Part shown: positions 21,635 to 29,584 of the stretch, one piece after another | How positions within the stretch are numbered: the stretch's first letter is position 1 | Layout of the letters: every line of letters starts with the position of its first letter | DNA from: Bacteroidota bacterium | Lineage (GTDB): Bacteria; Bacteroidota; Bacteroidia; M30B66 | Direction of reading: 5' to 3' | Assembly: GCA_020438185.1 (NCBI GenBank) | Contig: JAGQVC010000001.1 | Span: 1 to 29,584, forward strand | DNA: 29,584 nt | Program-made: the position numbers and the translations under genes | Notes under the pieces: generated by a model | What the model was told of the DNA's origin: nothing | Seen by the model: only the letters and a program-made list of their open reading frames with translations | Database searches by the model: none

Positions 21635-22063
21635 TCAGACTGTTGCTTCTACGTAATCCCTTCTAACAATAAACTTTGTAGTAACAGGCAGTTTTTGGGC
21701 TGCCAGGCGAAGAGCTTCTTTTGCTATTTCTAAAGGAACACCTTCTGCTTCAAAAATTACTGTTCCTGGTTTTACTACCGCAACCCAATACTCAGGAGAA
21801 CCTTTACCTTTACCCATACGAACCTCTGCAGGTTTCTTGGTGATTGGCTTATCTGGAAACACTCTGATCCAGATTTGCCCCTCCCTTTTCATGTACCTTG
21901 TTACAGCGATACGGGCAGCTTCAATTTGCCTGGCTGTCATCCAAACTCCTTCCATTGCCTTAATTCCGAAAGAACCAAATGCCAACTCGTGTCCACGGGT
22001 AGCATTCCCTTTCATCTTCATTTTATGCTGCTTCCTGTACTTAGTACGTTTAGGCTGTAACAT
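21635..22063 (-). CDS. rplP: 50S ribosomal protein L16
   Basis: [22 protein letters not shown]. Confidence 0.99.
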
Positions 22064-22147
22064 CGGTGATTCTTTTTATATCGTAATTGTTGTTATTCCC
22101 TTTAAAGCAGTATGATCAAGTGACAAAGCCTGCTATTTTGGGGACGG

Positions 22148-22177
22148 CAAAGATAGTAAGTTGTTTTTTAATTCCAA
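22148..22177 (-). promoter_or_regulatory. Bacteroidota sigma-A promoter upstream of rplP (TTG-N19-TATCTTTG)
   Basis: Exact TAnnTTTG at 22155-22148 with TTG at 22177-22175 (19-nt spacer), in the rpsC-rplP gap. Confidence 0.7.
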
Positions 22178-22283
22178 CAGCCTGAAACAAAAAAAATTAA
22201 GACGTTTTTTAAGGCTAAGCTAACCGGAATCCAAACATCTGACTGTCAGCGTTCTGTGACAATAAATTATAAATCAAAAAATC

Positions 22284-22311
22284 AAAAAAAAGGGAGGCAA
22301 AAGCCTCCCTT
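22284..22311 (-). terminator. Intrinsic terminator after rpsC
   Basis: Minus strand reads AGGGAGGC-TTTT-GCCTCCCT followed by 7 T; perfect 8-bp stem. Confidence 0.88.
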
Positions 22312-22328
22312 AAAATTTGTTATTAATT

Positions 22329-23057
22329 TTATTTACCTCTTCTACGTCCACCGCGGCGTTCTCCGCCTTGTGGAGCATTAGTATTTCCACCTTTTTGAGA
22401 TGCCATTCCAACATTCGGAGAAAGGTCACGTTTTCCAAAAACTTCCCCTTTGCAAATCCAAACTTTCACACCTATACGACCGTAGGTAGTGTGAGCTTCC
22501 GATAATGCGTAATCAATATCAGCACGCAACGTATGTAATGGTATTCTGCCCTCCTTATAACCTTCCACACGAGCCATTTCAGCACCACCTAAACGACCAC
22601 TGCATTTAGTCTTAATTCCTTCAGCACCCATTCTTACGGTAGAAGCAATTGAAGTTTTCATAGCACGGCGAAAAGAAATTCTCCCTTCAAGCTGACGAGC
22701 TATACCGTCAGCCACAAGACGCGCATCAAGTTCAGGTCTTTTGATTTCAAATATGTTAATCTGAACTTCCTTCTTAGTAAGCTTTTTAAGCTCTTCCTTC
22801 AGCTTGTCTACTTCCTGACCACCTTTACCAATAATAATCCCCGGGCGGGCAGTATTAATAGTAACTGTTACCAGTTTAAGAGTCCTTTCTATAATGATTC
22901 GTGAAACACTCGCTTTTACAAGACGCGCAGAAAGATACTTTCTGATTTTGTGGTCTTCAACAATTTTATCACTGTAATTGCGACCTCCATACCAGTTGGA
23001 GTCCCATCCACGAATAATGCCCAGTCGAAGGGCTATAGGATTACATTTTTGTCCCAT
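22329..23057 (-). CDS. rpsC: 30S ribosomal protein S3
   Basis: [38 protein letters not shown]. Confidence 0.99.
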
Positions 23058-26554: not shown

Positions 26555-28678
26555 TTATACAGATGCTGTTTTTCCTTTTGATTTAGCGATTACTTCTTCT
26601 GCAACCTGACGAGGGGCTTCAGAATAATGTGAAGGCTCCATGGTTGAAGTTGCACGCCCTGAAGAAATAGTACGAAGTGTGGTAACATAACCGAACATTT
26701 CACTCAAAGGAACTTTGGCTTTAATCACCTGCGCTCCTCCTCGACTATCCATTCCTTCAAGCTGACCGCGACGTTTGTTAAGGTCACCAATAATATCTCC
26801 CATGTATTCTTCCGGAGTAACTACCTCAACTTTCATGATTGGCTCAAGCAGGATAGGACGTGCTTTAGGCAAAGCTTCGCGGAATGCTGCTTTCGCGCAG
26901 ACTTCGAATGATAATGAATCAGAGTCAACTGCGTGGTAAGAACCATCAGAAAGTGTAACTTTAAGACTATCGAGAGTAAATCCGGCAAGTACACCATTCT
27001 GCATTGCTGTTTTGAATCCTTTCTCAACAGATGGAATGTATTCACGTGGAATGTTACCCCCAACAACTTCATTAACGAACTGAAGCCCTTCCTTACCTTC
27101 ATCAGCAGGTCCGATAGTAACAACGATGTCGGCAAACTTACCGCGACCGCCCGTCTGTTTCTTGTAAACCTCGCGATGAGTAACAGTACCGGTAATTGCT
27201 TCTTTGTAATTAACCTGAGGAGCACCCTGGTTACACTCAACTTTAAATTCGCGCTTCAAACGATCGAGAATAATCTCAAGGTGAAGTTCACCCATTCCGC
27301 TGATAATAGTCTGTCCGGAATCTTCGTCTGTTTTAACACGGAAGGTTGGATCCTCTTCAGCAAGTTTACTGAGAGCCATACCTAATTTATCAACGTCGGC
27401 CTGAGTTTTAGGCTCAATTGCAACACCGATAACCGGATCAGGAAACTGCATTGCTTCAAGAACGATTGGGTTCTTTTCGTCACAAAGTGTATCACCTGTT
27501 TTAATATCCTTAAAACCTACAGCAGCTCCAATATCACCTGCTTCGATGTACTCAATAGCATTCTGCTTGTTAGCATGCATCTGGAAAATACGGCTGATAC
27601 GCTCTTTATTGCCACTGCGCGTGTTAAGAACATAAGAGCCCGCATCAAGATGTCCGCTGTAAGCGCGGAAGAAACACAAACGGCCAACAAATGGATCGGT
27701 TGCAATTTTAAAAGCAAGTGCAGTAAACGGACCTTTAGGATCAGGTTTACGTGTAAGTTCCTCACCTGTATCAGGATGTGTTCCTTTGATGTTTTCTCTG
27801 TCAAGAGGACTTGGCATCAACTCCATAACGAGGTCAAGCATAGTCTGAACACCTTTGTTCTTGAAGGATGAACCGCAAACCATCGGAACAATTTTATTGT
27901 CGAGACAAGCCTGACGAAGTGCCCCAAGAATTTCAGCCTCGGAGATAGAATCCGGATCCTCGAAGAATTTCTCCATCAAAGTATCATCGTATTCAGCAAT
28001 TTCTTCAAGAAGCTTCCCTCTCCATTCAGTTGCTTCATCAAGCAAATCATCAGGAATTGGAACAACATTATAAGTCATTCCCTTATCAGCCTCATTCCAC
28101 TCAATACCACGGAAGTTGATCAAATCTACAACTCCACGAAAAGTCTCTTCAGCTCCAATTGGAATCTGAAGCGGAATTGCATTACCGCCAAGAACCTCAC
28201 GAACTTGTTTAACAACGTTCAGGAAGTCAGCACCCTGACGGTCCATTTTATTTACGAAACCAATTCTGGTAACGTTGTAATTATTTGCAAGTCTCCAGTT
28301 TGTTTCTGATTGCGGTTCAACGCCGTCAACAGCAGAAAACAGAAACACCAGACCGTCCAGTACACGAAGTGAACGATTCACTTCCACTGTAAAGTCAACG
28401 TGTCCGGGAGTATCAATGATGTTGATTCGGTGTTGCGGAAGATCGTTCTCAGAGCCTTTCCAGGAACAGGTAGTCGCGGCTGAGGTGATGGTAATTCCAC
28501 GCTCTTGCTCTTGCTCCATGTAGTCCATGGTAGCTGCACCGTCGTGCACTTCACCGATCTTATAGTTTACTCCGGTGTAGTACAAGATACGTTCGGTAGT
28601 AGTGGTCTTACCCGCATCGATGTGCGCCATAATACCGATATTACGAACTCGCTCTAATGGAATTTGTCTTTCAGCCAT
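26555..28678 (-). CDS. fusA: Elongation factor G (apparently chimeric: foreign N-terminus, Bacteroidota body)
   Basis: [38 protein letters not shown]. Composition and sequence style change around 28379-28426. Confidence 0.98.
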
Positions 28679-28895
28679 CGTTCCTTTCCAGACGATTTAC
28701 AAAGGTAAATAAGCAAAAGTAATTTGTGAACCAACACCGACATTCGACCCTTGGGCGCCGAATCCTAAGAGAGGTCACATAAACTCGGATTTTTTGCAGC
28801 AACCTTTTTAAAAGACTCCTGCGATAGAAATTCGAGTCTATCCGAGATCACCCGAATTCGGCACCCAAACGCCGAATGCAGCTCGACAGGTTACA

Positions 28896-28921
28896 GAAAA
28901 ACGCGACCGACGTCGCTTTTC
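28896..28921 (-). terminator. Terminator-like hairpin after rpsG
   Basis: Minus strand reads GAAAA-GCGAC-GTCG-GTCGC-GTTTTTC: a 5-bp GC stem plus 5 T. Confidence 0.4.
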
Positions 28922-28928
28922 GGTAGCC

Positions 28929-29399
28929 CTACCAGCGGTAGTGCGCGAATGCTCGGTTCGCCTCGGCCATACGATGCGTTTCTTCTCGCTTCTTTACCGC
29001 GTTACCACGGTTTTGGCTTGCATCATACAACTCATTCGCGAGGCGTTCTTTCATGTTCTTTTCCGAACGCTCACGGGCGTGCTGAATCAGCCAGCGAATC
29101 GCCAACGTGTCGCGACGGGAAGGACGAACCTCGGTAGGAACTTGGTAGGTTGCTCCGCCGACTCGTCGAGAGCGAACTTCAACCAACGGACGGACATTCT
29201 CGAGTGCCTTGCGGAAAACTTCGATGCCCTCTTCCTTGTAGCGAGTCTGGATAGTGTCGAGTGCTCCGTAGACGATCGACTCGGATACGCTCTTCTTTCC
29301 GCTCCACATCATAGAATTAATGAAACGGCCGACGATTTCATCGTTAAAACGAACGTCGGGCAAAATATCTCGCTTAAATTCGCGTCTTTTTCGCGACAT
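28929..29399 (-). CDS. rpsG: 30S ribosomal protein S7 (non-Bacteroidota type)
   Basis: [30 protein letters not shown]. About 53% GC by hand count. AAGGTG SD-like site 9 nt upstream. Confidence 0.99.
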
Positions 29400-29423
29400 G
29401 GAACTCTACACCTTAGCTAAATT

Positions 29424-29584
29424 TTATTGTTTTGGTTTCTTCGTACCATACTTGGAACGGCTCTGATTTCGCCCAACTACGCCTTGCGTATCAAGCTTAC
29501 CGCGAACGATATGGTAACGAACCCCCGGCAAGTCCTTCACACGACCGCCGCGAATGAGCACCACGGAGTGTTCTTGGAGATTAT
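29424..29584 (-). CDS. rpsL: 30S ribosomal protein S12, 3' part (5' end outside the window)
   Basis: Manual translation: [52 protein letters not shown]. Confidence 0.98.

Follow-up and report, generated by a model that had tools for sequence, protein, structure and literature searches.

Inter-genome chimeric contigs in short-read metagenome assemblies combine two source genomes, with the junction in shared sequence, a position at a contig end and duplicated marker genes. The contig described here resembles them in its two source genomes, its contig-end position and its duplicated markers, and its junction lies in a stretch that the parents may share. In assemblies of mock communities, chimeric sequences were always located at contig ends (Lui et al., 2021; PMC8172020). 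Two differences from the mock-community chimeras stand out. Those involved very similar genomes, whereas the parents of our contig belong to different phyla and have at most 35 nt that they could share. In addition, the join we describe happens to be in frame, and gene callers consequently return an EF-G of full length and plausible appearance, which public protein collections now contain.

The second frame of reference for this locus is the EF-G gene (fusA) of the host's own family. Our comparison set consisted of fusA from 11 same-family genomes, one of them of the same genus. The N-termini of the family are almost invariant (M(S/A)HDL(K/Q)(Y/F)TRNIGIAAH ... MDWMVQEQ ... CFWNYRDNKYK(L/I)NIIDTPGH). 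The native protein is 700-702 aa long and has IGIAAH, MDWMVQ and a 12-residue loop before NIIDTPGH, and its gene starts about 25 nt after rpsG with no SD-like site. This N-terminus is found in 11/11 family genomes, and the native combination of IGIAAH, MDWMVQ, the 12-residue loop and VEVNRSL occurs in 119/119 of the nearest EF-G homologues, some of which carry the source names Flavobacteriales or Bacteroidia.

Results

Layout of the contig

The window, that is, the whole stretch of 29,584 nucleotides that we analyzed, is the entire contig C110 of a MAG (G000; 2.1 Mb, 439 contigs, 73% complete) whose host is a Bacteroidota of Flavobacteriales type. On the minus strand the genes follow the order rpsL tail, rpsG, a 250-nt spacer, fusA, rpsJ, rplC and the remaining ribosomal protein cluster. 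The contig ends inside rpsL, of which translation reveals the 3′ part (29426..29582; 52 codons and the stop). The rpsG gene (28929..29399) encodes an S7 protein of 156 aa, the spacer occupies 28679..28928, and fusA is one ORF for a protein of 707 aa (26555..28678). This ORF has what is expected of an EF-G, namely the G1 (AHIDAGKT) and G3 (DTPGH) motifs and the rpsL-rpsG-fusA context, and precomputed Pfam matches place PF00009, PF03144, PF14492, PF03764 and PF00679 on it, in keeping with the five-domain architecture of the family. Elsewhere in the cluster, which is otherwise tightly packed, there is a gap of about 265 nt (22064-22328) between the ribosomal-protein ORFs 21635-22063 and 22329-23057.

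An EF-G with two sets of relatives

Set against its family, the EF-G of the window deviates at 16 of 76 family-invariant columns in residues 1-84 versus 3 of 489 in residues 85-707 (Fisher p = 2e-12), and its identity to the relatives is 72% over the former range versus 90% over the latter. Instead of the family's motifs it has IGIMAH and MDYMEQ, the loop before DTPGH is 15 residues long, three more than in the relatives, and the 250-nt spacer lies upstream of its gene. The sequence directly after the motif is identical in the window and the relatives, and from the motif on the identity is 86-94%. The window also shares its post-motif signature, its Pfam domains and the rpsJ-rplC synteny further along with the native family. 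By BLASTP, residues 1-97 are 84-90% identical to EF-Gs of Bdellovibrionota type and 79-80% identical to those of the Bacteroidota relatives, and residues 98-707 are 87-94% identical to same-family EF-G versus about 52% to donor-type EF-G. A sequence-only reading of this DNA had proposed an in-frame fusion at DTPGH of a foreign N-terminus to a body with Bacteroidota-style residues after the motif, and had suggested comparing the two parts separately. The column counts bear this proposal out, as do the independent donor and native contigs described below (L015 and C39), and the separate comparison did return different nearest relatives for the two parts.

A foreign block from rpsL to the start of fusA

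Nothing between 28424 and 29584 belongs with the remainder of the contig: the codons for EF-G residues 1-85, the spacer, rpsG and the tail of rpsL are all foreign to it. The foreign rpsL product ends ...KYGTKKPKQ, without the K-rich tail of the relatives' S12 and of the native S12 encoded on contig C39. The foreign S7, which is Bdellovibrionota-like and encoded by one of two rpsG copies in the bin, is 55% identical both to the S7 of the same-genus relative and to the native S7 on C39. Its best matches in the genome collection are MAGs of Bdellovibrionota/Bdellovibrionales (68-74%), and exact look-up found the identical protein on two other contigs (L015 and L016). When the window was compared by blastn with the same-genus contig G002:C23, it aligned from 28645 downward only, and 28646-29584 had no match.

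Composition changes along with ancestry. The GC content is 48.1% in fusA codons 1-97, 52.7% in rpsG and 43.6% in the rest of fusA, in agreement with the contrast that had been counted by hand in the sequence-only reading, and the corresponding GC3 values are 0.51, 0.58 and 0.33. Taken as a whole, the foreign block (28389-29584) has a GC content of 49.7% versus 40.5% for the rest of the contig, a value within the top 0.7% for MAG windows of equal size. The correlation of its tetranucleotide usage with that of the MAG is 0.22; random windows score 0.80 +/- 0.08, and the native rpsL-rpsG scores 0.64. The start of the gene also fits the foreign assignment made earlier, in that an SD-like site, GGAAAGGA, stands at 28689-28682, 3 nt before the fusA ATG, unlike the starts of rpsJ, rplC and the native fusA on C39, which have A/T-rich leaders and no SD-like site.

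Within the spacer, about 150 nt (roughly 28742-28877, minus strand) make up a long, imperfect hairpin, and the folding energy of the 250-nt spacer is -95.7 kcal/mol (z = -6.25 versus shuffles). The hairpin is a feature of the Bdellovibrionota-like donor, and L015 and L016 have it too; it may represent either a palindromic insertion element or a leader structure. Membership in an Rfam family was considered and rejected, the sole match being a miRNA-precursor model far below threshold (35 bits versus a gathering score of 136), and this match reflects the long hairpin and not family membership.

The donor contig and the position of the junction

An independent counterpart of the foreign block is L015, a 1528-nt ENA scaffold (ERZ28655193, WANG18-1_SAMN08389185) that carries rpsL-rpsG-spacer-fusA 5′ in the same register as the window end. 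Nucleotide identity is 98.6% over 28389-29584, made up of 99.4% over rpsL-rpsG-spacer and 95.9% over fusA codons 1-97, and falls to 55% beyond the motif. At the protein level the product of fusA codons 1-85 (28424..28678, minus strand) is 100% identical to the L015 fragment and 82-89% identical, loop included, to the EF-G of MAGs of Bdellovibrionota type, and it differs from the native N-terminus encoded on C39 and L108. The L015 EF-G remains identical to the window through the motif and then has a coherent non-Bacteroidota continuation. MAGs with donor-type EF-G (L019, L021, L022) have the same N-terminal type as the window and, like L015, share its loop, of the type ...W(K/Q)G(S/T)...(P/L)(Q/L). 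Further likenesses of the Bdellovibrionota type to the window are an S7 ending in AFAHYRW, an S12 without the K-rich tail and an extended spacer between rpsG and fusA, of about 100-150 nt or more. In these MAGs and in L015 the gene continues in donor fashion ((I/V)AVF...), unlike the Bacteroidota body in the window. Judged by these sequence features, the donor appears to resemble Bdellovibrionota.

We also observed that the window (at 29584) and L015 (at its position 1) end at exactly the same base of rpsL (codons NLQEHS...) despite 27 substitutions between them. Both assembly graphs may thus have branched at one and the same point in conserved sequence of rpsL.

Comparison of the window with L015 and with the native contig L108 fixes the junction closely. 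The last donor-only base is 28424, a C in the window and L015 and a T in L108, and the first bases that separate the body from L015 are 28388 and 28387. The switch therefore lies within the 35 nt of 28389..28423 on the minus strand, a narrower interval than the 28379-28426 to which it had been assigned from the window alone, and the native Bacteroidota body (Flavobacteriales type; approximately codons 98-707) occupies 26555..28388, followed by rpsJ, rplC and more genes. There are no N's at the junction. Identity of the DNA to relatives was of no use for this purpose, because same-genus DNA is only about 80% identical and the breakpoint cannot be located from it; L015 and L108 were needed.

The 35 nt are the longest stretch that both parents could share exactly, and the exact share of the window with L015, our proxy for the donor, is 23 nt at the junction (28389-28411). 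At 28421 and 28412 the window carries the native alleles of L108 and differs from L015, which makes the origin of these two positions ambiguous. If the donor in the sample had the L015 alleles there, the overlap would be 2 nt, which a k-mer join could not use. The donor here does, however, depart from L015 at 12 of 290 positions in fusA, one of them 28436, which lies beside the junction in the donor-specific loop, so that an exact overlap of 35 nt between the parents is plausible. We considered whether these 12 differences (in codons 1-97) were native alleles that had leaked into the consensus. Nine of them (28463-28601), which lie upstream of the donor-specific loop, fit no such pattern and are synonymous strain variation.

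The displaced native 5′ end

There are two rpsG copies in the MAG, one in the window and one on contig C39 (1-987; L018). On the minus strand C39 carries a native rpsL (580-987) and rpsG (91-558), and then fusA codons 1-22 (MAHDLKHTRNIGIAAHIDAGK) at the contig end, which falls in the P-loop. Its rpsL product has the K-rich tail of the Bacteroidota type, its rpsG-fusA spacer is 25 nt long and A/T-rich, and its S7 is 93% identical to that of the same-genus relative. The best PDB match of this S7 is 7jil, the Flavobacterium johnsoniae ribosome, at 229 bits, with all other entries at 200 bits or less; the foreign S7 ranks 7jil far down its list. C39 is collinear with the same-genus contig G002:C23 up to the point at which the window takes over, and the window continues there from 28645 downward. 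An orphan Bacteroidota contig with the 5′ part of rpsL-rpsG-fusA, for which the sequence-only reading had recommended a search, thus exists in the same assembly.

Additional native sequence came from Logan contigs found by exact look-up of the native S7 and S10 (runs SRR28338163, SRR28338166, SRR28338169 and SRR28338170). Three of them (L101, L104, L106) match the 25.8-27.2 kb region of the window with 100% identity, and two (L108, L109) are 99.8-99.9% identical to C39. L108, at 99.8%, carries the native fusA as far as codon 86 and stops 22 nt into the junction stretch, its last 22 nt being equal to 28402-28423 of the window. C39, L108 and the body in the window together thus cover the native gene, with the normal N-terminus of its family. 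A search for a single contig spanning the native junction found none, L108 stopping inside it. We also sought a full-length native EF-G of the same strain, for which about 97% identity was expected, and found none, the best other protein being 93% identical; the native junction is therefore covered only by the overlapping pieces C39, L108 and the window.

Two short contigs of the bin were considered as missing parts of the fusA genes and rejected, as they are fragments of two further organisms. C372 (558 nt; L002) is a third fusA 5′ fragment, with 46.8% GC and 82% identity to EF-G residues 8-131 of the window. It is donor-like on both sides of DTPGH and closest in type to the Bdellovibrionota/Bdellovibrionales MAGs L029 and L044, from which we conclude that this stray contig comes from another predator-like organism, the second one in the bin. 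C355 (627 nt; L003) holds a fusA 3′ end and the start of rpsJ, with 31% GC and 69% identity to the C-terminus of the window EF-G, and has strayed into the bin from a different Bacteroidota of low GC. The remainder of the donor's fusA and native codons 23-86 are absent from the bin.

Discussion

The contig has two parents, its junction lies in the 35 nt given above, and both parents exist in unrecombined form. We are highly confident that it is an inter-genome misassembly at a contig end, and the caveat of the sequence-only reading, that misassembly was at least as likely as biology, turned out to be the answer. Several observations expected of a chimera coincide here: the two sides of the junction differ in nearest relatives and in composition, each parent is present unrecombined elsewhere (the donor on L015, the native on C39 and L108), and the bin holds both an orphan native contig and duplicated single-copy markers. 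We infer that the join is the work of the assembler and runs through a short k-mer, no longer than 35 nt, common to both genomes. At the conserved DTPGH stretch of fusA it would have left the native genome and entered that of a co-occurring Bdellovibrionota-like organism, following fusA codons 1-85, the spacer, rpsG and rpsL until, after 1.2 kb, the path came to a halt in conserved rpsL. What it displaced, the native rpsL and rpsG with the start of fusA, would have remained as the end of C39. The native path would thereby have been broken twice, in the P-loop where C39 ends and in the DTPGH stretch where L108 ends. The bin, which is fragmented and probably of low coverage, lacks codons 23 to about 86 of the native fusA, approximately 200 nt.

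What was the step at which the two genomes were joined? A post-assembly process (scaffolding, gap filling, contig merging or bin refinement) that joined contigs overlapping in the conserved stretch would have the same effect as a mis-join in the graph. A share of up to 35 nt is acceptable to some overlap-based mergers, and the lack of N's at the junction is in keeping with such a merger, but the outcome is indistinguishable here from that of a mis-join in a de Bruijn graph. We consider this variant rather unlikely, and what probability it has is included in that of misassembly as a whole and not added to it.

A biological origin would have to take the form of a real and very recent homologous recombination between phyla, in which rpsL, rpsG and fusA codons 1-85 gave way to a Bdellovibrionota-like segment from a possibly predatory donor, with the crossover in the DTPGH stretch. 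The recombinant would share the sample with an unrecombined strain, to which C39 and L108 would belong. This was the reading, a cross-phylum mosaic of a core translation GTPase, that had been raised for the case that the junction were real, and it is not supported, in view of the native 5′ end on C39 and the unrecombined donor gene on L015. We regard it as very improbable. The join is, admittedly, in frame and in a stretch of at most 35 nt that may be common to the parents, where a crossover would also be expected, and the donor and recipient lineages do co-occur in related samples (L015, L105 and the WANG18-1 series). However, a recipient without its native allele is not what we see, given that both the bin itself and the same run series contain the native 5′ end. 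Nor has the foreign block been ameliorated in GC or tetranucleotide usage, and at the nucleotide level it is 98.6% identical to a donor contig with an intact fusA. Cross-phylum replacement of S12, S7 and the start of the EF-G G-domain by copies of about 55% identity would be highly unusual. With the contig ending after another 1.2 kb, a second crossover lies beyond observation. The chimeric EF-G forms a singleton 90% cluster, from one contig, among about 15 billion proteins, and is absent from 119/119 of the nearest homologues; a search for the same junction in other assemblies, samples or relatives, covering those proteins and homologues and the 11 family genomes, did not find it. Recombination would need a sample that held both unrecombined parents and a product that appeared in no other assembly.

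Could there be no chimera at all, the N-terminus, rpsG and rpsL being merely fast-evolving, lineage-specific parts of the host's own genome? As such an account would have it, the conserved G-domain retains about 77% identity to the relatives over residues 8-84. Yet the relatives of the genus and family are nearly invariant in this region, and the window is closer to another phylum-level group, the loop included; the identical N-terminus is joined to a different body on L015, and the native copy is present on C39. The probability that we give to this account is negligible, and by these comparisons it is already refuted.

The misassembly, then, is primarily a matter of data hygiene. There is no evidence that a cell carries the chimeric EF-G, and the feature is almost certainly an assembly artefact; if the contig is mis-joined, the 707-aa EF-G is a prediction from a chimera and not a protein that any cell makes. 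Both parents are ordinary fusA genes and the artificial part is the join only. That the join is in frame is the reason why a full-length, well-scoring "EF-G" results from the contig, and this protein is already in public protein collections along with the foreign S7 and S12. Used in trees, marker taxonomy or contamination estimates, the latter two could misplace the MAG or suggest a false transfer between phyla. The doubling of rpsL and rpsG in the bin, one foreign and one native copy of each, may have a bearing on its contamination estimate of 2.16%. In practical terms, C110 should be trimmed at about 28388, and the 707-aa EF-G, the S7 and the partial S12 treated as misattributed to the MAG. 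More generally, a stretch of at most 35 nt shareable between two phyla was apparently enough for a mis-join in a low-coverage bin, and such a mis-join can be recognized without reads from an orphan native contig, an independent donor contig and a set of relatives.

A last observation concerns the company that these organisms keep. The WANG18-1 samples contain not only the relative of the donor (L015, SAMN08389185; 98-99% nucleotide identity) but also a relative of the Bacteroidota (L105, SAMN08389190; 96.9% nucleotide identity). Since both occur in one other study series, the donor and Bacteroidota lineages seem to be found together repeatedly, and a common habitat or a predator-prey relationship could be behind this.
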